Shown here: positions 18,708 through 52,700 of the stretch, piece by piece
How the letters are laid out: every line of letters begins with the position of its first letter
Numbering within the stretch: the first letter of the stretch is position 1
Assembly: GCA_013387205.1 (NCBI GenBank)
Contig: WARV01000024.1
Coordinates: 11,283 to 75,282 of the forward strand
Length of the DNA: 64,000 nucleotides
Direction of reading: 5' to 3'
Source of the DNA: Patescibacteria group bacterium
GTDB lineage: Bacteria; Patescibacteriota; Doudnabacteria; UBA920
Position numbers and translations under genes: made by a program
Notes under the pieces: generated by a model
What the model saw: only the letters and a program-made list of their open reading frames with translations
Database searches by the model: none
What the model was told of the DNA's origin: nothing

Positions 18708-18783
18708 TTTCCACTAATTCACGAATTTACACAAATCACACTAAATACCAGTTTAGTGATATTAGTGAATTCGTGGATAAGTA
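18708..18783. mobile_element. MITE-like repeat family I, copy 1 (CACTAATTCACGAATT ... AATTCGTG)
   Basis: About 85% identical to 23413-23493. Both copies abut a start codon (the YefM-like ORF here, rpsL there). Confidence 0.7.
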
Positions 18784-18868
18784 ATTTTTGTATTCCCATT
18801 ATACCCCCATTCCCTCAGCTTTACAATCCCCTACAGATTTGGTATTCTAGGATGTTTAGGAGGAAAAA

Positions 18869-19138
18869 ATGGAAAGCAATGAAGAGCAGATTCTGCAAAG
18901 CTTACGGGAAAGGACCAAGGAAACACATGCTTCCCAGCGAGTCACTTTGCTCCTGGTCTATGGCCACAAAGTGAAAGGAGAACTGTATCATGTGGGCGAA
19001 AAAGACATCACCCTGCGTGTCACCCCGTGGTGGCGATCCCTGTTCGGGCTGGGTGCCATATTCTTCCACTGCCACCCGAGCAAGATTGTGGGCTATGCTG
19101 CCCAGTTCATCGACCGTAGCGGCTCTGTTCTCGACTGA
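18869..19138 (+). CDS. Hypothetical small protein
   Basis: 89 aa with a strong SD (AGGAGG, 7 nt upstream). Its GC content is higher than the flanks. Confidence 0.5.
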   Translation: MESNEEQILQSLRERTKETHASQRVTLLLVYGHKVKGELYHVGEKDITLRVTPWWRSLFGLGAIFFHCHPSKIVGYAAQFIDRSGSVLD

Positions 19139-19235
19139 CTACTGGTTATTAGCCTACGATTACCTTAACACGGCCCCCGCCGGAATTACCGGCGGTGGGC
19201 TTTTTCTTTTTGCCTTGTCACGCCGAAGCCTTGCC

Positions 19236-19272
19236 TTGCCCGCCATAGCTTTACGCGAAGGCTGGGGCGAAG
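19236..19272. repeat. Family K repeat (reverse orientation)
   Basis: CCGCCATAGCTTTACGCGAAGGCTGGGGCGAAGGCGG. Confidence 0.55.
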
Positions 19273-19349
19273 GCGGATGCTTTACAATTCCCTGCCCTTT
19301 TGTTATTCTAACCATCGCAATATGGTCTCAGACGAGAGGAGGAACATTA

Positions 19350-19595
19350 ATGGCAGGTTCCGTTATTTCTGCAGCCGTGCATTATGAATGCACAGATCCG
19401 AAAAAAGATAACTCTGGGTATCTAATCATGGTGCCGGTAGTTGAAGGCACCAATATCCCAGACGTCACCAAGACTGGCACAATTGTTGCAAAAAGAGAAT
19501 CCGGAGATATCACCGTAGAGGCAAGGATTCCAAACATCAATTACTGCCCGGAATGCGGTGCGCACATTCACGACGATCCGATACCGCGACGCTGA
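19350..19595 (+). CDS. Hypothetical small protein with C-terminal CPECG zinc-ribbon-like motif
   Basis: 81 aa. GAGGAGG SD 7 nt upstream of the ATG at 19350. Confidence 0.5.
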   Translation: MAGSVISAAVHYECTDPKKDNSGYLIMVPVVEGTNIPDVTKTGTIVAKRESGDITVEARIPNINYCPECGAHIHDDPIPRR

Positions 19596-19744
19596 ATTTC
19601 CTTTTGCCCTAACCGCCCAATCCCGACTTTTTGGGACAAGCGGTTCAGGGCTTTTCTTTTTGCTTGAATTACGTAATCTTTTTGTCATTGCGAGGAGACA
19701 AAGGGCTTTATCTTTGCCGACGAAGCAATCTTTTCATGATTAAG

Positions 19745-19915
19745 ATTGCTTTCACCTTCGCTAAAGCTACGGCGGACAAGTCGGCTGCACTCATAAGACA
19801 TCTAGCCAATTTTAAAGGGCCAACCGTTAGGTTGGCCCTTTCAACTTCAGCGATATATCCGCCACGAAGTGGCCCCTTTGGGGCGTTGCTATCCGCGAGT
19901 AATCCGCGGTACTAC
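19745..19915. repeat. Composite repeat block (family K plus family G modules) downstream of fusA
   Basis: CCTTCGCTAAAGCTACGGCGG ... CCGCCACGAAGTGGCCCCTTTGGGGCGTTGCTATCCGCGAGTAATCCGCGG. Confidence 0.65.
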
Positions 19916-22035
19916 ATACCCTTTCTCACATTAACGCCAGCGCGGGATTCAATAATCTTCTGCGCAATATTGCGAGGCACTTCGGCGTAGTGGTCGAATT
20001 CCATAGTGTAGGATGCTTGTCCCTGCGTCATGGAACGCAAAGTTGTGGCGTAGCCGAACATTTCGGACAGCGGCACAAAAGCGTCAATAATCTTAAGATG
20101 CAAGCGGTCAGTCATTTCGTTAATCTGCGCGCGCTTGGAGTTAAGGTCGCCGATAACGTCACCCATGTTGGTTTCCGGAGTGGTAACTTCCACTTTCATA
20201 ATCGGCTCCAAAATAATCGGATCAGCTCTCTTAATCACATCTTGAAGTCCCTTGGAAGCGGCGATTTTAAATGCCATTTCAGAAGAGTCTACTTCGTGGT
20301 AAGAACCGTCGTAAACGGCAATTTGAAAGTCCACCAAAGGATATCCGGCAATAACGCCGTTGGCAGCAGATTCCTGAATACCTTTATCAATCGGTTTGAT
20401 ATATTCTTTAGGAATAACACCGCCGACGATTTCATCAAGGAATTTATAACCTTCGCCTCTGGCAAGCGGCTCGGCACGCAAGTAAACGTGCCCGTACTGC
20501 CCGCGTCCGCCGGACTGGCGGATGTATTTGCTTTCCGCGGTGGCCGTACTCTTGATGGTTTCCTTGTAAGCGACTTCCGGCTTTCCGACGTTGGCTTCCA
20601 CTTTAAATTCGCGCTTCATGCGGTCCACAATGATTTCCAAGTGCAATTCGCCCATTCCGGCAATAATTGTCTGCTGGGTTTCTTCGTTGGTAGACAACTT
20701 GAAGGTCGGATCTTCTTCAGCCAGCTTGGACAAAGCAATGCCCATTTTTTCCTGGTCAGCTTTGGTCTTAGGCTCAACAGCCATGTGAATGACCGGATCT
20801 GCGAACTTAATGGCTTCCAAAACAATCGGCTTGTCCATATCGCAAAGCGTGTCACCGGTAAAGGTGTCTTTGGGCCCAACGAGCGCGCAAATGTCTCCGG
20901 CAAAAACTTCCTTGACTTCGTCGCGCTGATCCGCGCGCATGCGCACAATACGTCCTACGCGCTCTTTATTTTGGGTACGCGCGTTAAGAACGTAAGAGCC
21001 AGCTTCCAGCTTCCCCGAGTATACGCGGAAGAAAGCCAAGCGTCCGACGAACGGGTCAGTGGCAATTTTAAAAGCCAAAGCCGTAAATGGTTCATCATCG
21101 GAAGGTTTGCGTTCTAACGGCGCTTCGGTTTTTGGTTCATGGCCTTTTACCGATCCCCTGTCAGTCGGGCTAGGCAAAAAGTTGGTAACAGCGTCCAAAA
21201 TGGTCTGCACAATAACCCCGCGTCCGTCTCCGCCTAAAACCGGGAAGAATTTTCCGCCCTGCACGGCCTTGCGGATAGCAGTCAAAAATTCCTGTTCGGT
21301 CAATTCCTGTCCGCCTAAGTATTTTTCCATCAAAGCATCGTCGCTTTCCACAACTTTTTCCATGAGCTTATGGCGATATTCTTTGGCTTTTTCCATCATA
21401 TCTGCCGGCACTTCTTCGATAGTGAATTCTTTATCAGTAAAATCTTTGTAGGTGTAAGCCTTCATGTTAATCAAGTCCACGACGCCGCGAATTTCTTTTT
21501 CAAAACCGATTGGGATTTGAATAGGAAAAGCGTTCGGAGACAATCTCTTGTGGATGGAATCGAGCGAGCGGTAAAAATCGCCGCCGGTCTGGTTGATCTT
21601 GTTGATAAAGCACATGCGAGGCACCTGATACTTGTCAGCCTGGCGCCAGACAGTTTCGGACTGCGGCTCCACGCCCATCTTGCCGTCGAACACGACTACG
21701 GCGCCGTCCAAGACGCGCAAAGAGCGCTCCACTTCCACGGTAAAGTCCACGTGGCCCGGAGTGTCAATAATGTTGATTTTGTGCTTGGTGTCGCCGCCGA
21801 GCTTTATAAAGCGCGGGGTCCAATAGCAAGTCACGGCCGCGGAAGTAATGGTAATTCCGCGTTCGCGTTCCTGCTCCATCCAGTCAGTCACGGTCTCGCC
21901 TTCGTGCACCGCGCCGATCTTATGGATCATTCCTGTGTTATATAAGATACCTTCGGTAACCGTGGTCTTGCCGGCATCAATGTGCGCGATAATCCCAATG
22001 TTACGAGTTACCTCAATAGGATACTCTCTTGGCAT
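19912..22035 (-). CDS. fusA: Elongation factor G
   Basis: 707 aa, [16 protein letters not shown].. Confidence 0.97.
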
Positions 22036-22139
22036 AAAATAATTTAGTGATTAAATAATTTTTTGATTTATTGATTTTACTTGATGTCCGATAAACCTAA
22101 TAAGGCTTATCATGACCTATATTAACGGTTAAATCCTAA

Positions 22140-22297
22140 TAAGTTTGCGTTTTAGCCGTTCTTTTATACCACCTCCCCCTCGCTTCGCTCGGGTACTCCT
22201 CCTAATATTAGGAGGAGAGACTGCAGTTCTCCCCTCCTGCAAAGGAGGGGTGCCCCGACTTGTCGGGACGGGGTGGTATATTCGTAGATTCGATTTC
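22140..22297. repeat. Nested-hairpin structured spacer between rpsG and fusA
   Basis: Perfect palindrome TCCTCCTAATATTAGGAGGA. Also CCCCTCC-tgcaaa-GGAGGGG, and long-range TATACCACCTCCCCC / GGGGTGGTATA arms. Confidence 0.55.
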
Positions 22298-22846
22298 TTA
22301 TCTTCTGTTAAATCTCGCAAAGTGCGCGAAAGCCTTGTTGGCTTCGGCCATGCGGTGGGTGTCGTCGCGCTTCTTGACTGCAGCGCCAATCTTGTTGTAG
22401 GCATCCATAATTTCCGCGGCGAGCTTTTCACGCATCGGGGCGCCTTTTCTGGACTGGGCAGCGGCAATCATCCACTTCATTCCCAAAGTGGTCCTTCTTG
22501 GTTCCATGACTTCCATCGGAACCTGATAGTTGGACCCGCCAATGCGGCGGCCTTTAATTTCCATCAACGGGGAAACGTTTTTCAAGGCAATGTCAAAAAC
22601 CTGGCGGCCATCCAAAACTTTTTCCTTATTCCCTTCGCCTTTGGCAGCAGGCGCTGGTGTAGCGGCTGCCGGGGCTGATTTCATTTTTTCAGTGACAATC
22701 TCCAAAGCATCGTAAAAGATTTTCCTGGCCACGTTCTTCTTGCCGTTCTGCATCATGTAATTGATGAATTTGGCGTATTTGACGCTGCCGAATTTCAGGT
22801 CAGGAAGCGGAGTGTGTTTGTCGTAACTTCTAGATTTTCTTGGCAT
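22298..22846 (-). CDS. rpsG: 30S ribosomal protein S7 (with Ala/Pro-rich insertion)
   Basis: 182 aa. Confidence 0.95.
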   Translation of the reverse strand: MPRKSRSYDKHTPLPDLKFGSVKYAKFINYMMQNGKKNVARKIFYDALEIVTEKMKSAPAAATPAPAAKGEGNKEKVLDGRQVFDIALKNVSPLMEIKGRRIGGSNYQVPMEVMEPRRTTLGMKWMIAAAQSRKGAPMREKLAAEIMDAYNKIGAAVKKRDDTHRMAEANKAFAHFARFNRR

Positions 22847-22990
22847 AGATTTACTTCGTAAATTTTCTACTAAATACTAATTATTACTAATTGTACTAAA
22901 TATTATCAACCAAGCTTTATTGATATCACTGTTGGTATATAGCTTTAGTATATTTAGTATCCTTTAGTATTTAGTAGAAGTATTAGTAGA
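22847..22990. mobile_element. MITE-like repeat family B, copy 3 (rpsL-rpsG spacer)
   Basis: AGATTTACTTCGTAAATTTTCTACTAAATACTAATTATTACTAATTGTACTAAATA...TTAGTATTTAGTAG. It abuts the S7 start. Confidence 0.75.
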
Positions 22991-22994
22991 GAGA

Positions 22995-23408
22995 TTATTT
23001 AGCTTTTGCTCCATATTTGCTTCTGCCGCGTTTTCGACCGTCAACGCCTAAGGTATCTAATTTGCCGCGGACAATGTGATAGCGAACGCCTGGAAGGTCC
23101 TTAACCCTTCCACCGCGGATCATGACCACGCTGTGTTCCTGCAAGTTGTGGCCGATTCCTGGAATGTAAGCAATAACTTCCATTCCGTTGGTGAGTTTGA
23201 CTTTTGCCACCTTGCGCAAAGCCGAGTTCGGCTTTTTCGGGGTGGTGGTGTAAACCTTTAAGCACACGCCGCGCATAAAAGGAGCGCCGGTTTTGATGTG
23301 CAAGGTTTTGTTCTTAATCAGGTTGACGCGGCGCAAAAGTGCCGGAGACTTGCTCTTGGCCAAAAGCGGGCGCCTGCCTTTTCGAACTAATTGGTTAATT
23401 GTTGGCAT
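22995..23408 (-). CDS. rpsL: 30S ribosomal protein S12 (with about 13-aa internal insertion)
   Basis: 137 aa, [13 protein letters not shown].. Confidence 0.95.
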
Positions 23409-23412
23409 ACTT

Positions 23413-23493
23413 CTCCACTAATTCACGAATTTACACGAATCACACTAAATACCAGATTAGTGATATTAGTGATGATTAGTGAATTCGTGGATA
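23413..23493. mobile_element. MITE-like repeat family I, copy 2 (immediately upstream of rpsL)
   Basis: CCACTAATTCACGAATTTACACGAATCACACTAAATACCAGATTAGTGATATTAGTGATGATTAGTGAATTCGTGG. Confidence 0.7.
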
Positions 23494-23783
23494 AATAATA
23501 TTCTTGAATAAAAAAACTCCGCAGCAAAACTTGAGGAGCTTTTGCTACTTCGCCTGTTTGGTACCGGCTGAAAGCCGTCCGCCGATGAGGCGGATCTCCC
23601 GAAACCTGTGGGAGTAATCTTCCCGAACATTGCGACTAATATAGTAATACTTCTTCGCGATATTTGCGCAATCTGCGCATCCGCGAATAGGGTTTCTTAT
23701 TCAATTACCAATATTATACTATATTGACAAAAAAAGTCAATAACTTTAAGCTACACATAACACAGTCAGAATGGGAGGATTTA

Positions 23784-24173
23784 ATGACGGTTAAACAGGA
23801 TATTGGGACACTGGCATTATTCTATCATGTAGGGTTTTTTCTGTTCTGGTCAGATCTGCACAATAAAACTAATGCGGCAACACAGCCTCTTGAAGGCCTC
23901 ACTGAGATTACTTGCACCATCGCTATCTTAGTTTGGGGTATAGCCACCGCAGTAGTCAAGATCGGGATGATCTGCGGAGCCTGGAAGAAACTGCGACACA
24001 TAAGTGCTGTTAGTATTACTGCTTTTACGCTTTCCATCATCCTCTCAATGTTTATTACGAACGAGAGGTCATGGCAACCCACGGCATTACAAAGAACACT
24101 GGGCGAGATTGACATACTGAGCCAAGTAATGATCGACTTGGTTATCCTTATCAATTTTCGCCGACAATCCTAA
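23784..24173 (+). CDS. Hypothetical integral membrane protein
   Basis: 129 aa from the ATG at 23784 (GGGAGGA SD). It has 3-4 hydrophobic helices. Confidence 0.5.
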   Translation: MTVKQDIGTLALFYHVGFFLFWSDLHNKTNAATQPLEGLTEITCTIAILVWGIATAVVKIGMICGAWKKLRHISAVSITAFTLSIILSMFITNERSWQPTALQRTLGEIDILSQVMIDLVILINFRRQS

Positions 24174-24180
24174 TATTCAC

Positions 24181-24443: not shown

Positions 24444-24884
24444 ATGAAAATTCCGCTATCAAAGCTTTTGCATCGGTTTGAGCACGTAATAGGCAAAATC
24501 ATAACTGCTTTTTTAAAAAGAAAAGGATATATAGCTGACAAAAGATTCGCGCATGTCAGTATTACCTTAAATAACCGGCCATTTAATGACGACCAAATGT
24601 TTAAATTCGCCGACAATGAACTGAGGCAAATCCGCCATTTTGATTGGCGGCTGAATTTCGGGATGATGCGCCAGGAAGTAATAGTGCTGGTGGAAAACAT
24701 CGCGAGAAATAAAAATAACCCGACTCTGCTTCCGTGCGGCGCCATTGATTTGGAAAAAGCGAATAGATTTCTTTTAAAAGTAGGGTTTCCGTATAGGCTT
24801 GCATTAGCGCACGGATTAAACAATTCCGCGCTTGCCGAATACCGCCTGCGTAAAATAAAAGAAATTGATAGCGAACAGTCCTAA
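24444..24884 (+). CDS. Hypothetical protein
   Basis: 146 aa with an AAGGAGGA SD. Confidence 0.5.
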   Translation: MKIPLSKLLHRFEHVIGKIITAFLKRKGYIADKRFAHVSITLNNRPFNDDQMFKFADNELRQIRHFDWRLNFGMMRQEVIVLVENIARNKNNPTLLPCGAIDLEKANRFLLKVGFPYRLALAHGLNNSALAEYRLRKIKEIDSEQS

Positions 24885-24926
24885 GCGCGACTTAAAACCG
24901 CTTTTTCTTTTTTAATGATTATTTCT

Positions 24927-28075: not shown

Positions 28076-28187
28076 CATAATCCGAATTACCCAAAAAATA
28101 TCCTAATAACCCGAAAACAAGACCAACCAAAGGTTGGTCTTGTTTATTTAGGGGCATTCGGATGCTAATTCGGGGCATTAGGATTAC
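28076..28187. mobile_element. MITE-like repeat family A, copy 4 (reverse orientation)
   Basis: CATAATCCGAATTACCC...GGGGCATTCGGATGCTAATTCGGGGCATTAGGATTAC. Confidence 0.75.
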
Positions 28188-28189
28188 AT

Positions 28190-28444: not shown

Positions 28445-28568
28445 AATTACGAATTATACTGACCAATCTACTAATGTAACGAATAAAGCGAATGACAACT
28501 AATGCGTACTAAGAGAGAATTAGTTGTCATTGGTTATTATTAGCATGAATTCGTTGATTGGTTAATCC
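28445..28568. mobile_element. MITE-like repeat family H, copy 2
   Basis: It fills the entire spacer between the MGMT start and the DUF3048 stop. Confidence 0.7.
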
Positions 28569-30925: not shown

Positions 30926-31192
30926 CTATTTATGCATTCTAATATAGTTTTCCAGTTTATCATTCAACACTTCTCTCCCGTAGCCAGTTTTAAAAAATCT
31001 CTCTGATTTCATTGCATCAGCTTTCTCTAAATAAGCTTCGTAATATATTAATTTGAATGGTGCATGTTTCTTTGTATAACTACCGCCTCTCTTTCTGTTA
31101 TGCTCTGACAAAAATCTTCTTTTTAAATCATCAGTATAACCTTTATACAAAGCCCCATCTTTTAAACTTTCTAACACATAAAAATACCACAT
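30926..31192 (-). CDS. GIY-YIG nuclease family small protein
   Basis: 88 aa, MWYFYVLESLKDGALYKGYTDDLKRRFLSEHN. Confidence 0.85.
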   Translation of the reverse strand: MWYFYVLESLKDGALYKGYTDDLKRRFLSEHNRKRGGSYTKKHAPFKLIYYEAYLEKADAMKSERFFKTGYGREVLNDKLENYIRMHK

Positions 31193-38901: not shown

Positions 38902-41900
38902 TCAAATTACCAGGTTAATGAGTTTGTTTGGCACATAAATTACGCGTTTTATTTCACTTGTGCCGACTGCTTTTTTTACCTGCTCTACCACCAACGCCTC
39001 TGCCTTGACTTCGTCCTGGCTGCTATCCCGCTTAATGGACAGCTTAGCTTTAACTTTTCCGTTGACCTGTACAACAACATCAACAGTCTGGTCTATCACC
39101 AAAGCAGGATTATATTTTGGCCATTCGTGCTCTTGCAAAGATTTTTTATTGCCGAATAAAGAATACAGTTCTTCGCAAAAATGCGGGGCAAACGGGTACA
39201 TTAAAGCCAAAAAAGTTTTTAAAGAATCTAAAGTTATAAAGTCCTGCTTTATTTCATTATGGAATTCCATAAAGCTGGAAACAGCGGTGTTAAACCTCAT
39301 ATTTTCCAAATCTTCCGTAACCTTTTTAATTAGCTTATGCAAAGCTTTTTCTACTTTTTCCGTATCTTTAACTCCCTGATTATTTTTCGCATGAGGAGAA
39401 CTAATAACTTCATTCGCCCAAACCCAAACCCTGTCTAAAAACCTTCTCACGCCCAAAATCCCCTTATCGTTCCATGATACGGTCATTTCGTGCGGCCCCA
39501 AAAAAGGCTCGTACATCCTTAGAGTATCAGCTCCGAACTTTTTAACCACTTCGTTGGGATTAACCACATTTCCGCGGCTTTTAGACATCTTCTCGCCGTC
39601 CGCGGCTAAAATGATTCCATGAGGCTTTCTTAATACATAAGGTTCTTTGGTAGTAACCAACCCCTGGTCGTATAAGAACAGATTCCAAAAACGGGAGTAC
39701 AGCAAATGCAAAGTCGTATGTTCCATTCCTCCAAAGTAAACATCCACCGGGATCCAATACTTCTGCTTCTTTTTGTCAGAAAAAACTTTTTTATCTTTAG
39801 GGTCAATATACCTTAACCAATACCAAGAAGATCCTGCCCATTGCGGCATAGTATTGGTCTCGCGCTTGGCCGGCCCTTTGCATTTTGGACATTTTACATT
39901 TACCCAAGTCTCAATTGCGGCCAAAGGAGACTCCCCTGTCCCAGTCGGTTCGTAATTCTCAACCTCCGGCAATTTAACCGGCAAATCTTTTTCCGGCACC
40001 GCAACGATGCCGCACTTTTCGCAGTGAATTATAGGAATTGGCTCGCCCCAATATCTTTGCCTGCTAAAAACCCAATCTCGCAGCTTGTACTGCACGGTTA
40101 ATTTTCCGAACTCTTTTGCCATTTTTTCAATCGCTTGTTCTGAACCTAATCCGGAAAATTTTCCGGAGTTTATAAGCGTACCGTATTCCACGGAAGCCTT
40201 AGCTAATACCGGGGATGCAATGGCGCTGTCGATTATTTCATCCATTAATTCCGGAAGTTCTTTTAATCCCGACGATGTACCAAAATGGCCCTTGTTTTTC
40301 AAGACAACTGTATTCGCTTGCATATCTCTTTCGTATAAATCCTTTACCGACAAAGGTATATGTTCGTCGTTATCAGAAAACAAAGCAGTCGTTCCGGCTA
40401 CTAAATCCCGGATTTTTTCCCAATCCAAAGAAGCCTGCGAAACTTTCTGGATAGCTTCTGCTGGAGAATCGGCATGGTTGTCGCGATACCATTCCCAATC
40501 CATATCCGGATGGGTTGGTGCAACTAAAAATAAATGCCTAATCTTTTTGTTGAATTTCATCAGAAACTGCAAAGCGGTAGGCGCTCCCAAACTATACCCT
40601 ATAACAAGGGAGTTCTCATTTATCTCATCTTTATACTTTTCCAAAACCTTCAGTCTTTTATTTAAATCCGGGGTTCCCTGGTCATTCATATCAGGAGATA
40701 TCACTTTATATCCCAAGGCAGATAATTTTTCAGAAAGCCATGGAAACCAATTATTTTTGCCGTTACCGTTAGTCCCATGCAGCAACAAGACCGTACCGAC
40801 ATATTGCGGACGGACCACCTGGGTTATGGGCAAATTAAATTTTTGGGCAAACTCGAAATCGCGCTCGTCGTGTGCCGGCACAGCCATAATCGCGCCCGTG
40901 CCATAACCCCACAAAACGTAATCCGCAACCCATACCGGAATTTCTTCCTTCGTCGCGGGGTTAATTGCTTTTATACCTTTTAGTTCAACGCCGGTCTTTT
41001 CTTTTTCCAAAGACGTCCTTTGTGTTTCCGTTTCGCTCTTTACATCCTCGATATACTTTCTGACTTCCCCATAATTCTTAATTCTTGATTCTAAATTCTG
41101 CACCAACGGATGTTCAGGCGCCACAACCATATAAGTCGCGCCAAAAATAGTATCCGGGCGGGTAGTAAAGACTTTAATCTTCATGGCGTCATCCTGAGTC
41201 CCGGATGCATCTGAGGGACGAAGGATCTCTTTATTTGACTGAGGGTGAGATTCTTCGCTCGGCTGCACTCGCTCAGAATGACGCCGAGAGGATAATATCA
41301 CTTCGCCTTTTGCACTCCTCACAATGACACCGAAATCTATTTCCGCGCCAACGCTTTTTCCAATCCAGTTTTCCTGCTGCAGCTTAACAGCCTCCGGCCA
41401 CTCCGGCAGATTTTTTAACCCTTCCAAAAGCTTTTCGGCGTAAGCCGTAATTTTCAAATACCACTGCCTTAACTCTTTTTTTACAACAACAGTTCCGCAC
41501 CTGTCGCATTTGCCGTCAATCACTTCTTCGTTAGCCAGCCCGGTTTTATCTTTAGGGCACCAGTTTATAAGCCCGGTAGCTTCGTAAGCCAAGCCTGCTT
41601 CAAAAAACTTCAAAAAGATCCACTGCGTCCATTTATAATAGTCAGGATCCGTGGTGTTTACTTCCCTGCTCCAATCGAAACTAGTTCCCCAGGATTCAAG
41701 CTGGGCTTTGGCATTTTTGATATTTTTTGCCGTGGAAATGCTCGGATGGATATGGTGCTTTATTGCAAAATTTTCCGCAGGCAAACCAAAAGCATCCCAA
41801 CCGATTGGGTATAATACTTCATGGCCTTTCATGCGTAAGAAGCGGCTGTAAATATCCCCGGCAATATAAGGGCGCAAGTGTCCCATGTGCAAACCTTCGC

Positions 41901-42033
41901 CGGAAGGGTAAGGAAATTCCACCAGCACATATTTTTTCGGATTTTTTGAAAAATCTTTAGCGACAAAAGTTTTTTTCTGCTGCCAATATTTCTGCCACTT
42001 CTTTTCAATTTGTAATGGGTTATATTTCTTCAT
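38902..42033 (-). CDS. leuS: Leucine--tRNA ligase carrying two in-frame insertions (an RPE-like palindromic insert and an RBBP9/YdeN-like alpha/beta-hydrolase domain)
   Basis: HMGH and KMSKS class I motifs, a CP1 editing domain, and the anticodon-binding C-terminus. The ORF is 1062 aa from a TTG at 42090; I placed the start at the ATG at 42033 (1043 aa). Confidence 0.95.
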   Translation of the reverse strand: MKKYNPLQIEKKWQKYWQQKKTFVAKDFSKNPKKYVLVEFPYPSGEGLHMGHLRPYIAGDIYSRFLRMKGHEVLYPIGWDAFGLPAENFAIKHHIHPSISTAKNIKNAKAQLESWGTSFDWSREVNTTDPDYYKWTQWIFLKFFEAGLAYEATGLINWCPKDKTGLANEEVIDGKCDRCGTVVVKKELRQWYLKITAYAEKLLEGLKNLPEWPEAVKLQQENWIGKSVGAEIDFGVIVRSAKGEVILSSRRHSERVQPSEESHPQSNKEILRPSDASGTQDDAMKIKVFTTRPDTIFGATYMVVAPEHPLVQNLESRIKNYGEVRKYIEDVKSETETQRTSLEKEKTGVELKGIKAINPATKEEIPVWVADYVLWGYGTGAIMAVPAHDERDFEFAQKFNLPITQVVRPQYVGTVLLLHGTNGNGKNNWFPWLSEKLSALGYKVISPDMNDQGTPDLNKRLKVLEKYKDEINENSLVIGYSLGAPTALQFLMKFNKKIRHLFLVAPTHPDMDWEWYRDNHADSPAEAIQKVSQASLDWEKIRDLVAGTTALFSDNDEHIPLSVKDLYERDMQANTVVLKNKGHFGTSSGLKELPELMDEIIDSAIASPVLAKASVEYGTLINSGKFSGLGSEQAIEKMAKEFGKLTVQYKLRDWVFSRQRYWGEPIPIIHCEKCGIVAVPEKDLPVKLPEVENYEPTGTGESPLAAIETWVNVKCPKCKGPAKRETNTMPQWAGSSWYWLRYIDPKDKKVFSDKKKQKYWIPVDVYFGGMEHTTLHLLYSRFWNLFLYDQGLVTTKEPYVLRKPHGIILAADGEKMSKSRGNVVNPNEVVKKFGADTLRMYEPFLGPHEMTVSWNDKGILGVRRFLDRVWVWANEVISSPHAKNNQGVKDTEKVEKALHKLIKKVTEDLENMRFNTAVSSFMEFHNEIKQDFITLDSLKTFLALMYPFAPHFCEELYSLFGNKKSLQEHEWPKYNPALVIDQTVDVVVQVNGKVKAKLSIKRDSSQDEVKAEALVVEQVKKAVGTSEIKRVIYVPNKLINLVI
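40216..40809 (-). other. Alpha/beta-hydrolase (Ser_hydrolase/RBBP9/YdeN-like) domain inserted in the LeuRS leucyl-specific domain
   Basis: Residues near 428-625: VLLLHGTNGNGKNNW (HG oxyanion), VIGYSLGA (GxSxG nucleophile elbow), FSDNDEHIP (acid), KGHF (His). Flanked by canonical LeuRS ..FNLPITQVV and GTLINSGKFSGL. Confidence 0.75.
41181..41325. mobile_element. RPE-like palindromic element inserted in frame in leuS
   Basis: GGCGTCATCCTGAGTCCCGGATGCATCTGAGGGACGAAGGATCTC ... GATTCTTCGCTCGGCTGCACTCGCTCAGAATGACGCC. It encodes the low-complexity segment IVRSAKGEVILSSRRHSERVQPSEESHPQSNKEILRPSDASGTQDDA, between the conserved IDFGV and KIKVFTTRPDT. Confidence 0.75.
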
Positions 42034-42086: not shown

Positions 42087-42452
42087 TCAATTTTTCAAAA
42101 ATTGATAAATTCTATTTAAAACCCCTTCTAAATTTTCATCTAAGTCATTATCCCAAAATCTTAAAACAATATATCCTTGATCTCTCAAAAGTTTATCTCT
42201 TAATGAATCGGTAATTTTTTTCTGAAGATGATGACTACCATCTAATTCAATGATTAATCTTTTTTTGATACAAATAAAATCAACTATAAAATTTCCAATC
42301 GGATACTGCCTTCTAAATTTAAAATCTTTAAACCTTCTATGTCGCAGAAGATACCATAATTTTTGTTCCCAAGGAGTTTGATTTATCCTTAACTTCCTGG
42401 CTGCTTGTATCAAATTTTGGTTTTCAATCCCCCTCATCCGTCCTCCGGCCAC
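42087..42452 (-). CDS. DUF559 (endonuclease-domain, Vsr-like fold) protein
   Basis: 121 aa, ..NQTPWEQKLWYLLRHRR..FKFRRQYPIGNFIVDFIC....IIELDGSHH....D..RD..L...GY.VLRFWDNDL. Flanked by CTCCCTttaGGGAGAG (42055-42070) and CTCCCTcaGGGAGAAGG (42455-42475) hairpins. Confidence 0.8.
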   Translation of the reverse strand: MAGGRMRGIENQNLIQAARKLRINQTPWEQKLWYLLRHRRFKDFKFRRQYPIGNFIVDFICIKKRLIIELDGSHHLQKKITDSLRDKLLRDQGYIVLRFWDNDLDENLEGVLNRIYQFLKN

Positions 42453-43365: not shown

Positions 43366-44808
43366 TTAAGAATTAAGAATGCGGGGAAACAGTGGTTCAG
43401 CTTTGATAATGGGATATTTTTTCAGATGATCTAATATTTTTAGACTGGATTCTGGCAAAAACGGTTCTAACTGTTCGGCCACAAAATAAATTCTTGCTAT
43501 GAGATGGTGGGAAACGTCGCTGAATTCCGCCAAATCAGATTTTGCCAAATCCCATAATTTCTTTTCATCAACAATTTTATTCGCAATAATAACCTGCTCC
43601 CAAATTTTCGATAACGCCGTATGAAAACGGAAATTTGCTATTTCTGCTTCAATCTCTTTTTTTTCCTTGCTAAAATCGCAATAAAAAATATTTTTCTGGC
43701 TTTCGTATTTTCCACCGAGATATTTCTCTGCCAATGTGGTGACGCGGCTAACTAAGTTACCCAAACCATTTGCCAGTTCGCCCTCATAGCGAGTTTTTAA
43801 TTTCTCTTCGCTTACATCCCCGTCATCGCCGAACGCCACTTCGCGCAAAAGCAAATAACGCACGGCGTCCGCGCCGTACTTAGCCACCCAATCGTTCGGG
43901 TCAATTACATTACCAATGCTTTTGGACATCTTTTCTCCGCCAACAGTCAAATAACCATGCACAACAACCTCTTTAGGCAAAGGCAGTCCGGCTGCAAGCA
44001 AAATTGCCGGCCAAATTATGCAATGAAATTTGGAAATATCCTTGCCGATAATATGGCAGTTTGCCGGCCACCAATCTTTTCCATTTTCATCTTTGGCGCC
44101 GGTAACGTAATTAATAAGCGCATCCACCCATACATACACGGTCTGCTCTTTATCCCACGGCAGAGGTATTCCCCATTTCACGTTCGGCCTCGATATGGCA
44201 ATATCGTTAAAACCTTGCTCAAGCAAACTTAAAATTTCATTTTTGCGCTCAACCGGCCAAATTTTCAATTCATCTTTTTCAATTGATTCCTTAATTTTTC
44301 CGGTAAATTCTGACACTTTCAAAAACCAGTTTTTTTCCGTAACAAGTTCCGGCTTGGTTTTATGGATTGGACACAAGCCGTCTATTAAATCTTTTTCCGG
44401 ATAAAACGTCTCGCAAGATACGCAATACAAACCGCTATATTCTCCTTCATAAACATAACCATTGTCCTTTATCTTTATCAGTAAATCTTCAACGGTCTTA
44501 ATATGGTCAGCATCAGTTGTACGGATAAGCCTGTCAGGCTGGATATTAAGCTGGTCCCAGGCAAAACTAAACTGGGCGGCTGTCTGGTCAGTAAACTCTT
44601 TTAAAGCCACACCGGATGCCGCAGCAGCTTTTTCGATTTTCGAGCCATGCTCGTCTGTCCCGGTTAAGAATCGCACTCTATCTCGCCCGTACTTAGCCGA
44701 ATAAAACCTGGCCAACACGTCGGCTGCAACTTTCTCATATGCATGGCCAATGTGCGGCTTGGCGTTAATGTAATCTATTGCGGTTGTAATAAAGAATTTT
44801 TCAGTCAT
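43366..44808 (-). CDS. metG: Methionine--tRNA ligase (short form, no C-terminal tRNA-binding domain)
   Basis: 480 aa with an HIGH-type motif (INAKPHIGHAYEKV) and KMSKS. Confidence 0.95.
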   Translation of the reverse strand: MTEKFFITTAIDYINAKPHIGHAYEKVAADVLARFYSAKYGRDRVRFLTGTDEHGSKIEKAAAASGVALKEFTDQTAAQFSFAWDQLNIQPDRLIRTTDADHIKTVEDLLIKIKDNGYVYEGEYSGLYCVSCETFYPEKDLIDGLCPIHKTKPELVTEKNWFLKVSEFTGKIKESIEKDELKIWPVERKNEILSLLEQGFNDIAISRPNVKWGIPLPWDKEQTVYVWVDALINYVTGAKDENGKDWWPANCHIIGKDISKFHCIIWPAILLAAGLPLPKEVVVHGYLTVGGEKMSKSIGNVIDPNDWVAKYGADAVRYLLLREVAFGDDGDVSEEKLKTRYEGELANGLGNLVSRVTTLAEKYLGGKYESQKNIFYCDFSKEKKEIEAEIANFRFHTALSKIWEQVIIANKIVDEKKLWDLAKSDLAEFSDVSHHLIARIYFVAEQLEPFLPESSLKILDHLKKYPIIKAEPLFPRILNS

Positions 44809-44903: not shown

Positions 44904-45911
44904 TTATGTCGTTGATCTGGCCGAATAAATTTCCCTGAAGACAATTGTTATGGCAGTGGCCAGCGGCACGGAAATTAACACCCCCACCACTCCGGCTAAT
45001 TTCAAGCCTATTAATAAAGCCAGTAACACCACAAGCGGCGAAGTACCCACGGTTTTTTCCATAATCTTGGGCACTAAAACATATCCTTCAAATTCATGCA
45101 CTAAAATATATAAAACAATTACCGCTATGGCTAAAGACGGCTGCTGGCTAAAAGCCAGCAGCACGGCCGGGACAGCCGAAAGGAAAGGCCCGATATACGG
45201 AACCAGCTCAAACAAACCGGCCAGCAGCGCCAGGACCAGGGCATACTTAACATGCAAAATCGTCAGGCCGATGAATGTAAAAAGAAAAATGCCGAAACAA
45301 ATAATTACCTGCCCAATAACCCACAACCCCATCTTTTTTTGGATCTTATCAATAAGGTTCATTGTAAATTCATGATGGTGTTTCGGCACCAAAGAATCCA
45401 CAAAAGATTTCATGCCCTTTTCTTCCACCAGAAGGTAGATAGAGATGATTAACACCGCAATGAAAGAAAGGACACCGTTAAAGAATACGAATGTTTTTGC
45501 CAAAACCCCTCCTCCGCTGGAAATGCCGGATGTCAAATTTTTCAGAATGTCTGAAATATTATAATTACTTGGGATTATTGCCCCAAAATACTTGTGGATC
45601 TCCCCATTATACATTGGCAAATTATCCCGCAAGAAAGAAGCCTCCCTTAAGACCGGCGGAATTACCAAATACACAATTAAGACAGCTACGGCCAAAACCA
45701 ATCCGTAGACAGCCAGGACGCTGACAATGCGCGGGATTTTTATCTTATTCAAATAATTAACCAGCGGGTCCATGGCCGACCCTAATATCAAAGACAATAA
45801 AATAATCACGACAATGTCGCGGATTAGCCATAAAAAAACCAAAGCCAAAAATGCAAAAATGACCTTTAAAATTATTTTCGTGCTGGTATCTAACTCGTTG
45901 TAATATCTCAT
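44904..45911 (-). CDS. AI-2E family transporter (UPF0118/PerM)
   Basis: 335 aa from the ATG at 45911, with 7-8 TM helices and the conserved PYIG and SVP motifs. Confidence 0.8.
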   Translation of the reverse strand: MRYYNELDTSTKIILKVIFAFLALVFLWLIRDIVVIILLSLILGSAMDPLVNYLNKIKIPRIVSVLAVYGLVLAVAVLIVYLVIPPVLREASFLRDNLPMYNGEIHKYFGAIIPSNYNISDILKNLTSGISSGGGVLAKTFVFFNGVLSFIAVLIISIYLLVEEKGMKSFVDSLVPKHHHEFTMNLIDKIQKKMGLWVIGQVIICFGIFLFTFIGLTILHVKYALVLALLAGLFELVPYIGPFLSAVPAVLLAFSQQPSLAIAVIVLYILVHEFEGYVLVPKIMEKTVGTSPLVVLLALLIGLKLAGVVGVLISVPLATAITIVFREIYSARSTT

Positions 45912-46065
45912 ACCCTGTAGAATTTCTTTGCAATTGTTCGCTGTCCGCCAGCTGGCGGATACCGACAACGAAGATTATTGCAATGTAAGTGAATTTGACG
46001 TCCCTTATAGGCTAACCTATTATTTACCGCTCACAACAGGAGGTTTGCAAAGAAGCTCTACAGGG
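45912..46065. mobile_element. MITE-like repeat family J, copy 1 (CCTGTAGAATTTCTTTG ... CAAAGAAGCTCTACAGGG)
   Basis: Terminal IRs are identical to copy 2 at 52562-52700 but the internal sequence differs. Both copies directly abut a start codon. Confidence 0.75.
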
Positions 46066-46105
46066 CATGCCTTTATTTTACACTTTAACCAGTAAAAAAT
46101 CCAGC

Positions 46106-46473: not shown

Positions 46474-46488
46474 TGCTTGCCTTTCTTT

Positions 46489-47915: not shown

Positions 47916-48039
47916 ATTAACGAATTAGCTTGACTAATCAACTAATGTAACGAATATTACCAATGATAACTAATGTTATCTAAGTAAGGATTAGTTGCCA
48001 TTAGTTATTATTAGTATGGATTCGTAGATTAGTTAATTA
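47916..48039. mobile_element. MITE-like repeat family H, copy 3
   Basis: It fills the NUDIX-M16 spacer exactly, from start codon to stop codon. Confidence 0.7.
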
Positions 48040-49308: not shown

Positions 49309-49630
49309 TGTTTTGATTAATAAACCTTCCTTCTTTTAATAACTCAGACTGTAACTGGATACTGTCAACAAATTCATTAAAATTTTTCTCGTAGTATCCG
49401 TCTTCAGTCATCTGTTTTATTTGTTTTATTTGGCTAAGCAGTTCATTGGCTACTAAAAAATGCGTTTCACTGGCGCCAGGTTTTAATTTATGGCCGGTCG
49501 GATTAATTTCCGCAAATTTTTCCCTGGTTGCCGTTAAATCTCGTTCAAGCTTATCCAGCCTAGATTGCAACTCCTGCTTTTCAGCAAAAGGCTCTTCTGG
49601 CTTTAAACCCTTTACTTCTAAATTACTCAT
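49289..49630 (-). CDS. Hypothetical coiled-coil protein
   Basis: 113 aa. Confidence 0.4.
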   Translation of the reverse strand: MSNLEVKGLKPEEPFAEKQELQSRLDKLERDLTATREKFAEINPTGHKLKPGASETHFLVANELLSQIKQIKQMTEDGYYEKNFNEFVDSIQLQSELLKEGRFINQNNELQKE

Positions 49631-50844
49631 ATAATGTTGTCTTTTAATTTTGTTGAAACATTTATAAATTTTTTAATCTGGCCCTTTTCTAAATATACCA
49701 AATCTTCAATCCTTATGCCACCGATTTTCGGCAGGTATACGCCGGGTTCTACGCTGAACACCATGCCATTTTTTATTATATCTTTTGATTTAGGGGATAA
49801 ATTCGGCAGCTCGTGGATTTCAAGGCCCGTGCCATGCCCGAGGCTATGTATGAAATATTTATCAAGATTTTTCTCGGCTAAAATCGCCACGGCTTTTTGG
49901 TAAACCTGGTCTCCTGTCACCCCCTTGTCATTGCGAGCCACGAGTGCAGCCGAGTGGCGCGGCAATCTTTCCCTTGTAATAAGATTGCTTCGCTCGGCCG
50001 TTCGGCTTTGCTCAGGCCGACTCTGAGTAGAATCGAATGGGTCGAATGCACTTGCTCGCAATGACATAAAGTCTATGCATCCCCAATACGCCTTCTCCAC
50101 CTGGTTATAAGCCGCTTCCAATTTTGCCGGAGCTTTTTTTAAAAACACTGTCCTGGTAAAATCGCTGCAATAATTTTTATACTTAAAGCCGAAGTCCAAA
50201 ATTACGGATTCTCCCGGTTTTAGCTTTTTCTTAGACGGCACATGATGCGGAATGGCAGCATTAGGCCCGCTTGCCACAATCGGCGGAAAGCTTATGTCTT
50301 GCGCCCCAAACTTTAGGCCTGTTTGTTTGATAAACTCCGCCAATTCTATCTCTGTAGGGACGAGAAGCGGCCACCCGCTACGCAAGCGGCGCTTAACCTG
50401 AAAAAAAACCTGCTCCACGATTTTCATCGATTTCCCAATCAAGGATATTTCTTCCGGTTCTTTAATCATCCTCTGAAAATCAACCGGGTCGTGTTTAATA
50501 TTCACCTTAATTCTTAAATCTTTGCTCTTTACTCTTATATATCTGACTTCCGCGTAAGTGAACTCCCCAAATACGTCCAAAACTTGCCTGGGATGGATAT
50601 ATGTTCCTATATTTTTCAAAAAATCCGAATGGATCCCCTCTATCCTTTCCAATCCATCCCCCAAGAAGATAACTGATGGGTTTCCGCGCTGATCTGCGTT
50701 GCTATCCGCGTGTTTCCGCGGCTTCACTAATAAATACCCATGCATAAAAGAACGACCTGTTAAATATAACAGGTTTTCTTTTTTCTTTATCAGCAACGGC
50801 TGCTTTAAAGAAAATTGGAGTTGTTTTATCCTGCTTCTGTCCAT
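49627..50844 (-). CDS. pepP: M24-family Xaa-Pro aminopeptidase carrying an in-frame RPE-like insertion
   Basis: 405 aa with the C-terminal pita-bread motifs HSLGHGTGLEIHE and VEPGVY. Confidence 0.85.
   Translation of the reverse strand: MDRSRIKQLQFSLKQPLLIKKKENLLYLTGRSFMHGYLLVKPRKHADSNADQRGNPSVIFLGDGLERIEGIHSDFLKNIGTYIHPRQVLDVFGEFTYAEVRYIRVKSKDLRIKVNIKHDPVDFQRMIKEPEEISLIGKSMKIVEQVFFQVKRRLRSGWPLLVPTEIELAEFIKQTGLKFGAQDISFPPIVASGPNAAIPHHVPSKKKLKPGESVILDFGFKYKNYCSDFTRTVFLKKAPAKLEAAYNQVEKAYWGCIDFMSLRASAFDPFDSTQSRPEQSRTAERSNLITRERLPRHSAALVARNDKGVTGDQVYQKAVAILAEKNLDKYFIHSLGHGTGLEIHELPNLSPKSKDIIKNGMVFSVEPGVYLPKIGGIRIEDLVYLEKGQIKKFINVSTKLKDNII
49920..50070. mobile_element. RPE-like palindromic element inserted in frame in the M24 peptidase gene
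   Basis: GTCATTGCGAGCCACGAGTGCAGCCGAG ... GGGTCGAATGCACTTGCTCGCAATGAC. It encodes ..SLRASAFDPFDSTQSRPEQSRTAERSNLITRERLPRHSAALVARNDKGV.. Confidence 0.7.
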
Positions 50845-51234
50845 CTATGCTGCGTACTGCTTAAATATTTGCAAAGCTTCTTCAATCCTATTTTTTAAAA
50901 CCATTATATCATCGCCAGCAACACTATCTTCGTTCCTCATTGCAAAATATTTGTCGGATATTTTCCTTAAATCCGCATGGCAAGCATTGACTATGCCTGC
51001 ATGCTGGGGTTTTAGGTTTTTTCCTATATAGAAATAAATGTTCTCAAATTTCGAAACTGCACGTGATACTTCCTCTGCGGTTATCGCATTATCCTCTAAG
51101 AGCAAAAATTCATCCAATTTTTCTTTGCCGCTTGCGAACTCTGTTTCATGACGCAAGGCATCCTTTGCTATTTGGCCCTGTGTTAAATTTTGATCCTCGT
51201 ACTCCAAGACCCCTTCGGGACTCATATTACTCAT
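50845..51234 (-). CDS. Hypothetical protein
   Basis: About 129 aa from the ATG at 51234, just downstream of the glyQS stop. Confidence 0.4.
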   Translation of the reverse strand: MSNMSPEGVLEYEDQNLTQGQIAKDALRHETEFASGKEKLDEFLLLEDNAITAEEVSRAVSKFENIYFYIGKNLKPQHAGIVNACHADLRKISDKYFAMRNEDSVAGDDIMVLKNRIEEALQIFKQYAA

Positions 51235-51238
51235 ATGT

Positions 51239-52561
51239 TTATAAGCTGTTAATGTTCTTTTGCAAATAAGATTGCAAATCATCAATTTTCACCCTGGGCT
51301 GCTCTTTGGTGTCGCGGCTACGCACGGTTACGCTTCCGTCTTCCAAAGTCTGGAAATCCACGGTAATGCCAAATGGCGTGCCTATTTCGTCCTGGCTATA
51401 ATAACGTTTGCCCACGTTCCCCCTGTCATCCCAGGCCGTGGAAAAGTGCTCTTTAAGCTGGTCGTAAATTTCGCGCGCTTTGGCAACCAATTCCGGCTTG
51501 TTCTTTAACAGCGGAAACACCGCAACTTTATACGGAGCCAAACGCGGCGGCAGAGCCAAATACACGCGATCCTCTTCTTCGCGGTAATGCTCGCACAAAA
51601 CCGCCAAAACCGTGCGGTCAACTCCCCAGGTCGGCTCTATTACGTGCGGCAAATATTTCTCGGAAGTGTAAGGGTCAGTATATCTCAAGTCCTGGCCGGA
51701 TTTTTCCTGATGGTTCTTCAAGTCAAAATCCGTGCGGTAAGCCAAGCCGTAAAGTTCGCTCACGCCGAACGGAAAATGGTACTCAAAATCTATGGTACGC
51801 TTGCTGTAATGCGCCAATTCGTCCTTAGGCACTTCCAGTTCATGGACATGAGTCAAATCTATCCCCAAATCCTTATTGATCCAGGACAGCATGTTCTCGC
51901 GCCACATCTCAAAATACTTATTCCATTCCGCGTCCTCTTTCGGGACCGGGATGAAATATTCAATTTCCATCTGTTCGAATTCGCGCGTGCGGAAAATAAA
52001 ATTTCCCGGGGTGATTTCATTGCGGAAAGCCTTCCCAATTTGCCCAATGCCGAAAGGTACGGTCTTGCGCGAAGTATCCAAAACATTCTTAAAATCCACG
52101 AACATGGCTTGCGCGGTCTCCGGCCTGAAATACGCAATGTTCGCCTGCTCTTCCGCCGGACCGATAAAAGTCTTGAACATCAAATTAAACATCTTGGCTT
52201 CGGTAAATCCGGCGGACTTATCGCAAGAAGCACAAGGTTTGGTTGTATCAATCTGGTCAGCGCGAAAACGGGTGTGGCAGTTCTTGCATTCCACCAAAGG
52301 ATCGCTGAAATTTTTCAAATGGCCGGATGCTTCCCAAACTGCCGGCTTCATAATTAAAGCCGCATCAATGCCGACCATGTCATCCCTGCCTTGCACAAAT
52401 CGCTTCCACCACAACTGCTTAATGTTGTTTTTCAATTCCACTCCGACAGGACCGTAATCCCAAGAATTAGCAAACCCGCCATAAATCTCGCTGCCCGGGA
52501 AAATAAACCCTCTTCTTTTGCACAAAGACACTATTTTATCCATCAAATCGTTGTTATTCAT
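51239..52561 (-). CDS. glyQS: Glycine--tRNA ligase (alpha2 dimeric class II type)
   Basis: 440 aa, FPGSEIYGGFANSWDYGPVG.. Confidence 0.95.
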   Translation of the reverse strand: MNNNDLMDKIVSLCKRRGFIFPGSEIYGGFANSWDYGPVGVELKNNIKQLWWKRFVQGRDDMVGIDAALIMKPAVWEASGHLKNFSDPLVECKNCHTRFRADQIDTTKPCASCDKSAGFTEAKMFNLMFKTFIGPAEEQANIAYFRPETAQAMFVDFKNVLDTSRKTVPFGIGQIGKAFRNEITPGNFIFRTREFEQMEIEYFIPVPKEDAEWNKYFEMWRENMLSWINKDLGIDLTHVHELEVPKDELAHYSKRTIDFEYHFPFGVSELYGLAYRTDFDLKNHQEKSGQDLRYTDPYTSEKYLPHVIEPTWGVDRTVLAVLCEHYREEEDRVYLALPPRLAPYKVAVFPLLKNKPELVAKAREIYDQLKEHFSTAWDDRGNVGKRYYSQDEIGTPFGITVDFQTLEDGSVTVRSRDTKEQPRVKIDDLQSYLQKNINSL

Positions 52562-52700
52562 ATCCTGTAGAATTTCTTTGAAATTCCCGATATAATCGGG
52601 ACGACAATGCTAGATATTAATTAAGTAAATTGATGCCTAAGCAGAACTGTTTTTGAATTCCAAAAATTATCTTAAAGTTCTCAAAGAAGCTCTACAGGGC
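52562..52700. mobile_element. MITE-like repeat family J, copy 2 (abuts the glyQS start codon)
   Basis: TATCCTGTAGAATTTCTTTG...CCCGATATAATCGGG...CAAAGAAGCTCTACAGGGC. Confidence 0.75.

Follow-up and report, generated by a model that had tools for sequence, protein, structure and literature searches.

The subject of this work is a set of short palindromic repeats lying between the genes of a 64,000-nucleotide stretch of DNA (hereafter, the window; contig WARV01000024.1 of assembly GCA_013387205.1, positions 11,283 to 75,282 of the forward strand) from a Patescibacteria group bacterium of the Doudnabacteria. The window has a GC content of 42%, and nearly all of its genes are on the minus strand. 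Its S10-spc ribosomal-protein operon runs from rpsJ (13904) down to rplR (4180), and the str operon is represented by rpsL (22995–23408), rpsG (22298–22846) and fusA (19912–22035), with tuf at 15036–16226. NCBIfam profiles and translation confirmed rpsL, rpsG, rpmC, rplP and glyQS together with their start codons; S12 and S7 have the canonical N-termini MPTINQL and MPRKSRS, and the glycyl-tRNA synthetase is of the dimeric GlyQS type. Among homologues of its ribosomal protein L2 that carry a source name, the nearest are labeled “Patescibacteria group” or “Candidatus Doudnabacteria” (76–78% identity), with others up to 81%, and the exact protein was also found on a 1-kb contig of Logan run SRR19769811; look-ups of the exact rpsL and fusA proteins gave no match. 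These data point to a CPR/Patescibacteria bacterium that has no close sequenced relative. The heptamer-like repeats had at first hinted at a cyanobacterial origin, which was discarded in view of the dimeric GlyQS and of the best L2 homologues, all this being typical of Patescibacteria only in the case of L2.

Self-comparison of the window revealed dispersed repeats of families I, J, H, B, A and K, with 2–4 copies each (counted within the 64 kb), lengths of 85–155 nt and pairwise self-BLAST E-values from 1e-16 to 1e-36. They are short (< ~300 bp), contain no credible open reading frame (ORF), occur in multiple dispersed copies and have terminal inverted repeats, as expected of miniature inverted-repeat transposable elements (MITEs). 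In family I, about 17 of 20 terminal positions match, while in B, H and A the arms pair over their full length. Each of the 14 copies in families A, B, H, I and J folds into a hairpin over its whole length, with z-scores from −3.1 to −7.6 computed against dinucleotide shuffles. The distance from copy to start codon is 0–19 nt, the exception being A4, which adjoins no start. A gapless hairpin census picked up mainly terminators, missed the long imperfect elements and was kept out of the statistics. The copies, and one single-copy cassette, are the following:

557–665, minus strand: A1, in the rlmH leader, ending about 6 nt before the ATG at 552
3470–3565, minus strand: A2, in the leader of the HTH-MurA gene, ending 3–4 nt before the ATG at 3469
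4052–4179, minus strand: H1, the entire spacer between the stop of rplR and the start of orf74 (z = −3.6)
7959–8095, minus strand: B1, in the rplP-rpmC spacer, a 114-nt hairpin and a mini-hairpin (ATTTAC-GAA-GTAAAT) before the ATG
8507–8641, minus strand: single-copy cassette with CCTAATT / AATTAGA arms, the hairpin of the rpsC-rplP spacer
9983–10086, minus strand: K1, in the rpsS-rplV spacer, with a 5′ arm of 9-nt TGACAAAAN repeats and a conserved 3′ half
10420–10528, minus strand: K2, in the rplB-rpsS spacer
11366–11495, minus strand: B2, in the rplW-rplB spacer
12521–12625, minus strand: A3, in the rplC-rplD spacer
18702–18788, minus strand: I1, an imperfect hairpin in the 5′ leader of a relB-like gene (z = −4.5)
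22847–22994, minus strand: B3, in the rpsL-rpsG spacer
23409–23502, minus strand: I2, in the rpsL leader, with a 10-nt internal duplication (TGATTAGTGA; z = −3.6)
28076–28189, plus strand (inverted): A4, in the spacer between the convergent stops of the S41 peptidase gene and ogt (z = −7.6)
28445–28568, minus strand: H2, the entire spacer between the stop of the DUF3048 gene and the start of ogt (z = −4.4)
45912–46067, minus strand: J1, whose 3′ terminal repeat directly adjoins the AI-2E transporter gene ATG at 45911 (z = −3.1)
47916–48039, minus strand: H3, the entire spacer between the stop of the M16 peptidase gene and the start of the Nudix gene (z = −6.9)
52562–52702, minus strand: J2, abutting the glyQS ATG at 52561 (z = −4.5)

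An initial annotation of this DNA had described several of these families as MITEs abutting start codons. Their MITE-like, dispersed and evidently mobile nature and their place in transcribed 5′ leaders and intercistronic spacers are borne out, and their closeness to starts was reproduced with some corrected details. In family I, whose copies are 94% identical in the core, the shared sequence stops 8 nt short of the ATG at 18701 and 5 nt short of the rpsL ATG at 23408, where 5–7 nt had been given; the label “YefM-like” for the gene at 18701 comes down to a weak RelB-like Pfam match (E = 0.0066). Family J does end at the ATGs of the AI-2E transporter gene and glyQS, and the last letters of both 3′ repeats before the ATG read ...CTACAGG(G/A)T. 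Family H fills three stop-to-start spacers as described, the first copy reaching 4179 and not 4172. B1 and B3 do share an identical stretch before the rpmC and rpsG starts, which was given as 40 nt and quoted as a string of 31 nt; the exact common run is 39 nt counted from the CAT of the start codon, i.e., the ATG and 36 nt upstream. Family J has a terminal inverted repeat of 17–22 nt, CCCTGTAGA(AT/GC)TTCTTTG, with four matches against 0.35 expected, and the J1 interior, enclosed by terminal inverted repeats of ~20 nt, is unrelated to that of J2. The loop of A4 has a perfect terminator-like hairpin of 14 bp (28115–28145) nested inside it. It follows that the elements tolerate insertions within them or an exchange of their cargo.

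This arrangement is not confined to the families named, which are simply the cassettes that recur within the 64 kb. Read in gene sense, almost all S10-spc spacers consist of a hairpin with arms of tandem 7–10-nt units, after which come a short A/T linker and the ATG. The distribution of intergenic lengths across the window is bimodal, with values either ≤35 nt (including overlaps) or ≥75 nt, and nearly all of the long ones have fold z-scores below −3. As a separate observation, CTGCAG is found at the hairpin apex (relative position 0.39–0.50) in 9 of 70 long spacers that otherwise have no arm sequence in common, approximately 5-fold enriched relative to whole loci; these are ribosomal-protein spacers of the window (e.g., 9983–10086) and of two of the comparison genomes introduced below, L120 (e.g., 11918–11998) and L124.

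Four comparison genomes were reached through their L2 homologues (L119, L120, L124 and L125, 76–81% L2 identity), and a metagenome contig, L122, has 75% L2 identity. All five display the same hairpin-spacer architecture. When the window and the four genomes are compared over 20 orthologous S10-spc spacers, 15 of the 20 are short (4–34 nt) in at least one genome, and elsewhere the same spacers are occupied by hairpins of 45–175 nt and unrelated sequence. The L23-L2 spacer is a case in point: it measures 4 nt in L124 and 16 nt in L125, L119 and L120 have an AGATT-heptamer hairpin of 76–80 nt there, and it is occupied by family K (~105 nt) in L122 and by family B (130 nt) in the window. The L29-S17 spacer has 5 nt in the window versus 139 nt in L119, where the family of the window rpsC-rplP cassette recurs (72% identity over 127 nt), and the L14-L24 spacer, 24 nt in the window, is spanned in L122 from TGA to ATG by a family A copy with 85% identity to those of the window. 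In L125, B-like copies lie on both sides of the ortholog of the relB-like gene. Presence is thus variable at orthologous sites across relatives, the comparison being one of diverged genomes. Families A, B-like, K and the CTAATT type also occur in other genomes of the clade, in different spacers, and decayed or half elements exist, such as the lone arm of family K that L125 has between L16 and L29.

A 29-mer of family K retrieved three metagenome contigs (L121, L122 and L123). The 3′ half of the element (AATTATGTTCAATTTTAYTTAATTWTTTAAATTTTGYTCAAT) is nearly invariant, with a block of 42 nt shared by six copies; these come from five genomes, between which the L2 proteins are 75–81% identical. 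The element lies forward upstream of rplB in L122 and reversed between co-directional genes in L121 and L123, where it still runs from stop to start. Its positions outside the window are the following:

L119, 12515–12616: family K
L122, 6599–6702: family K
L121, ~2166–2262: family K
L123, ~3485–3590: family K

Searches for family J were unfruitful: among the matches listed (at least 117) in a scan of genome contigs with its 17-mer terminal repeat, BLAST found no real copy, the pattern being too short and the matches due to chance, and a metagenome scan with both terminal repeats gave no match.

Why do the elements seem to be cut to measure? In nine operon-internal copies, the nucleotides outside the main hairpin have a median sum of 18 nt, and native short spacers (n = 20, five genomes) have a median of 17.5 nt (Mann–Whitney p = 0.89). 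The apparent exact fit is explained by this similarity, since a single element inserted in a typical native spacer of 4–34 nt leaves the same flanks. Leaders behave likewise. J2 begins 8–9 nt after an extended −10 box (TGTTATAAT) and J1 is preceded, at a distance of 9 nt, by a TAAAAT hexamer, so that with the element removed their genes would have leaders of ~3 nt; I1 begins ~17 nt after a predicted TTGTAA-17-TATAAT promoter. With leaders so short, any surviving insertion must abut the ATG. By a rough estimate, the combined probability of the positions of the six leader copies, given the predicted promoters, is ~0.4, which is not significant. Other palindromes are found near stop codons or upstream of promoters, which, together with A4 between convergent stops, indicates that the elements are not tied to start codons. 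The earlier proposal that a fixed position relative to starts marks regulatory modules rather than random insertion is largely unsupported in light of these flanks, of A4 and of the two orientations of family K.

Nor did the elements prove to be donors of promoters, as had been suggested. Predicted promoter boxes upstream of leader copies lie outside the repeats:

18798–18826, minus strand: predicted promoter TTGTAA-17-TATAAT, just upstream of I1, conserved in three relatives
23713–23740, minus strand: predicted promoter TTGACT-16-TATAAT of the rpsL operon (11 of 12 matches), ~210 nt upstream of I2
52709–52717, minus strand: extended −10 box TGTTATAAT, 8–9 nt upstream of the J2 terminal repeat and outside the element

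At the first of these, the sequence GATTGTAAAG-N15-TATAAT is conserved in L119, L120 and L124, and the DNA between promoter and ATG differs in each genome, being I1 in the window, a GCCCATTTATGGGC hairpin in L119 and other sequence in L120 and L124, with a B-like element in L125. A conserved promoter followed by differing inserts indicates that the I1 promoter is ancestral and the element is the insert. The box at 52709–52717 is likely the glyQS promoter. The extended −10 motif TGNTATAAT occurs 17 times in the window against 2.9 expected, mostly upstream of genes, and appears to be the main promoter type there; from its distance to the ATG, several genes would be near-leaderless (vtt at 1817, metG at 44808). 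Promoter-like matches inside elements are few and weak (B3, K), and by these sequence predictions no repeat contains the promoter of its downstream gene. Copies internal to operons need no promoter in any case. A perfect TTGACA-17-TATAAT with a TG extension was also noticed at 14118–14146 on the plus strand, between rpsJ and tuf, pointing against the direction of the operon.

The same applies to ribosome-binding sites (RBS), the other proposed donation. Shine–Dalgarno (SD)-like motifs (GGAG, GAGG or AGGA, ≤18 nt from the start) precede 16 of 71 genes in the window and, among ribosomal-protein genes, only rpsL, whose GGAG is part of I2 and has no counterpart in I1. The 3′ ends of the elements showed no conserved GGAG, GAGG or AGGA. 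The core genes of this genome thus lack SD sequences, which leaves the elements with no RBS to donate. The absence of the anti-SD motif has been reported in a subgroup of Parcubacteria (PMC9297842). Strong GGAGG-type sites are mostly at hypothetical genes (starts at 24444, 25143, 32396, 46330, 30419 and 56331), with none of that strength at ribosomal-protein or aminoacyl-tRNA synthetase genes; the genes that have them are probably accessory and may have been acquired horizontally.

We consider it probable that these repeats are selfish, non-autonomous palindromic (foldback) elements of 80–150 nt, akin to MITEs, REPINs and ERIC sequences, which are confined by the compact genome of a Patescibacteria lineage that does not use SD sequences. 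They would insert more or less anywhere and survive solely where nucleotides are dispensable, namely in intercistronic spacers, in the short stretch that separates the ATG from the −10 box or transcription start, and in the gap between convergent stops. As such permissive gaps would measure only ~0–35 nt, every surviving copy would seem tailored to stop and start codons. The elements would be co-transcribed and form RNA hairpins, with possible incidental effects on processing or stability and perhaps, through mRNA structure, on expression, but would supply neither promoter nor ribosome-binding site. They could be moved by a RAYT-like HUH enzyme or by a DDE transposase that matches the terminal repeats.

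Several observations weigh against this interpretation. All window copies with a downstream gene share one orientation, which would happen about once in 512 if orientation were random, although replication direction is a confounding factor. The identity of B1 and B3 extends all the way to the ATG, and J1 and J2 share the ATG junction and the spacing from a −10-like hexamer. Families A (85% identity) and K (an exact 29-mer) are more conserved between genomes than L2 (75–81%), which would imply constraint or horizontal spread. Target-site duplications were sought by eye at all junctions and none was convincing, with no consistent direct repeat for A, B, H and I. No transposase is encoded in the 64-kb window, and no match to PF01797 (RAYT) was found among the window proteins scanned. 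The elements are palindromes, as REP sequences are, but among them only family J has the GTAG foot tetranucleotide, in its terminal repeat (CCCTGTAGAG). Directly 5′ of that repeat there is an ATG or GTG, and the resulting (A/G)TG...ATG, a possible duplication of 3 bp seen in two copies only, could be a duplication of the start codon of a leaderless gene. The bias in orientation, the shared junctions, the conservation and the lack of target-site duplications and transposase keep two minority readings in play, one being strand-specific (HUH-type) mobilization and the other a selected intercistronic function.

That the elements are mobile regulatory cassettes bringing a promoter and/or a translation-initiation region, in the manner of Neisseria REP2 or some Correia elements, is improbable in our view. 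It would account for the identity of B1 and B3 over 36 nt upstream of the ATG, for the common junction of J1 and J2 and for the uniform orientation of window copies relative to the downstream gene; family K even holds TTGACA-like repeats and, on its reverse strand, TTGAAC-N18-TAAAAT, and REP2 copies with promoter, RBS and ATG are a precedent (PMC3184786). However, the cassettes would have to act without an SD motif in elements or core genes and with promoters that lie elsewhere (ancestral and external at I1, an extended −10 outside the repeat at J2, ~210 nt upstream at rpsL), relatives express the same genes from spacers of 4–34 nt with no element, and a reversed K between co-directional genes in L121 and L123, or an A4 that adjoins no start, is hardly what one would expect of them. 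Alternatively, hairpins could be selected as RNA in a non-SD lineage, either as intercistronic punctuation (processing by RNase III or RNase Y to short-leader mRNAs, 5′- or 3′-end protection) or for handing ribosomes over from stop to start, with the mobile families as raw material. We regard this as unlikely, in spite of its attractions: hairpins occupy nearly all long spacers in five or six genomes, extending from 0–15 nt after the stop to 0–24 nt before the ATG and followed by an A/T-rich linker, the element is the ATG-proximal part of longer regulatory regions, families persist across genomes with only 75–81% L2 identity, and core genes lack SD motifs. On the other hand, any given spacer is without a hairpin in at least one genome, and decayed half-elements occur.

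Selection on RNA also found no support in folding energies or covariation. Compensatory changes amount to 2 of 32 pairs in family H (three copies) and 0 of 24 in family A (four copies), the covariation term being positive. Spacers of the window often fold better as antisense, and among 32 spacers of relatives 18 fold more stably antisense and 14 sense, i.e., with no strand preference. From this small sample, the palindromy looks inherited from the element rather than kept for the transcript. A known structured cis-regulatory RNA was discarded as well, given the lack of both an Rfam match and covariation among copies: at the gathering threshold Rfam returned three tRNAs only, and an E-value search of window positions 3400–24000 gave only noise. 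It also seems unlikely that, in a clade without SD initiation, stop-to-start palindromic cassettes have become a standing feature of operons, nearly all S10-spc spacers included, with old, sequence-conserved families (the A, B, K, CTAATT, AGATT and ACGAAT types) hopping between spacers and being retained as intercistronic punctuation, through processing to short-leader mRNAs or through the proximity of stop and start for re-initiation. An origin in place, by slippage of 7–10-nt units and template-switch “palindromization”, with multi-copy families spread by gene conversion between spacers, would fit the tandem sub-repeats of the arms, the lack of target-site duplications, the CTGCAG apex in spacers with unrelated arms and a copy identity that runs exactly from stop to start. 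We find it implausible all the same, as it leaves unexplained how copies with 80–94% identity come to lie 3–24 kb apart in non-homologous contexts, how the same families come to occupy different spacers of different genomes in both orientations, and why family J has defined terminal repeats around unrelated interiors. TIGR-Tas arrays, with repeat units of ~36 nt, were set aside because these spacers appear to have no such array structure.

Streamlining is considered typical of Patescibacteria genomes, and repeats are normally absent from the S10-spc operon. Palindromic mobile elements were nevertheless found in most spacers of this operon, in six or more genomes of a single clade. Nothing on MITEs or intergenic palindromes in Patescibacteria turned up in our literature searches. 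We are dealing with new families of a known kind, notable for their saturation of a ribosomal-protein operon and their sharing across a clade in a streamlined, non-SD lineage. In so compact a genome, survivorship alone yields a precise fit to starts and stops, and this fit is no evidence of regulatory function. Two questions are raised, namely how non-SD cistrons tolerate or use hairpins of 100 nt directly upstream of their starts and why some element families exceed ribosomal proteins in conservation.

Dispersed copies in the same orientation may also drive rearrangements. In four relatives, rplR (L18) is followed by rpsE, rplO and secY, whereas in the window the S10-spc operon ends after this gene (3827–4536) and H1, a 74-aa ORF, A2 and the gene for an HTH-MurA fusion come next. 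The break falls exactly at the H1 spacer, which suggests a repeat-mediated rearrangement. Hairpins, moreover, mislead ORF callers. The TTG starts of the longest ORFs of rplN, rpsN, rpsH and tuf are false, with frames that extend into hairpin arms or leaders:

7443–7502: false extension of rplN, true ATG at 7442
6000–6038: false extension of rpsN, true ATG at 5999
5692–5730: false extension of rpsH, true ATG at 5691
16227–16403: false extension of tuf, true ATG at 16226

The minus-strand ORF “o177” (14270–14803) may be a mis-call of a plus-strand gene, as suggested by the gene layout of L124 and L125.

Other features of the window deserve mention. Two further families of dispersed repeats, with motifs such as GCTTTA(C/T)GCGAAGGC and CCGCCACGAAGTGGCCCCTT, are GC-rich and of a type unlike the AT-rich palindromes:

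18120–18171, 19230–19266, 19748–19780, 54849–54881 and 54938–54989: GC-rich repeats
5179–5246, 18248–18305 and 19847–19914: GC-rich repeats
(these two sets lie near fusA, near tgt and in the rpsH-rplF spacer)

Three small GIY-YIG nuclease ORFs, two of them adjoining tRNA genes, and one DUF559 (Vsr-like) endonuclease ORF are probably selfish genes, and no link between them and the repeats was shown:

963–1199, plus strand: GIY-YIG or DUF559 ORF
17793–18260, minus strand: GIY-YIG or DUF559 ORF
30926–31192, minus strand: GIY-YIG or DUF559 ORF
42087–42452, minus strand: GIY-YIG or DUF559 ORF

Insertions were seen in some proteins. Compared with the bacterial profile, S12 (137 aa; 22995–23408) is interrupted by ~15 additional residues; S7 (182 aa; 22298–22846) has an insertion of ~25 residues that includes an Ala/Pro-rich stretch, and leucyl-tRNA synthetase (38902–42033, minus strand) an alpha/beta (serine) hydrolase domain at residues ~434–616, adjoining the editing domain.

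In known systems, the closest behavior is that of intergenic palindromes of the ERIC, Correia and REPIN type (reviewed in PMC3184786). The ERIC/IRU sequences of Enterobacteriaceae, imperfect palindromes of ~127 bp classed as MITEs, resemble the window elements in size and end-to-end fold, in occupying transcribed intergenic sites (including those inside operons), in being co-transcribed and in their variable presence at orthologous sites. However, no sequence similarity to them and no evident flanking TA motif was seen in the window elements, which form many unrelated AT-rich families with arms of tandem 7–10-nt units in a non-SD Patescibacteria host. Correia elements (CREE) of Neisseria are also MITEs, of ~100–155 bp, with terminal inverted repeats, a frequent position 5′ of genes and a hairpin RNA, and some copies alter expression (PMC3184786). 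They differ by their 26-bp terminal repeats, TA duplication, IHF site and defined outward promoters, whereas here promoters are external and no TA duplication was seen. With the REP/BIME/REPIN sequences mobilized by RAYT (an HUH enzyme), our repeats share extragenic palindromes, the lack of target-site duplication, operon spacers, a bias in orientation and long-term persistence in a lineage; REPs, in contrast, are short and GC-rich with a conserved GTAG foot, here present in family J only, and membership of this class requires a RAYT gene.

Neisseria REP2 and Borrelia IR repeats lie immediately upstream of genes and reach up to the ATG, as B1/B3 and J1/J2 do, but the promoter and RBS looked for inside the window repeats were not found. 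A last likeness concerns repeats in other settings. Elhai et al. (2008) reportedly described small dispersed repeats in Nostoc with hairpins of heptamers (STRR), and Smith and Lee (2009) are said to have described palindromic repeats filling the intergenic spacers of organelles. They have counterparts here in the tandem heptamer-like arms, the many families and the nearly saturated intergenic space, although those repeats belong to a different phylum and have other sequences, and the ones presented here are housed inside the S10-spc operon of a streamlined genome.

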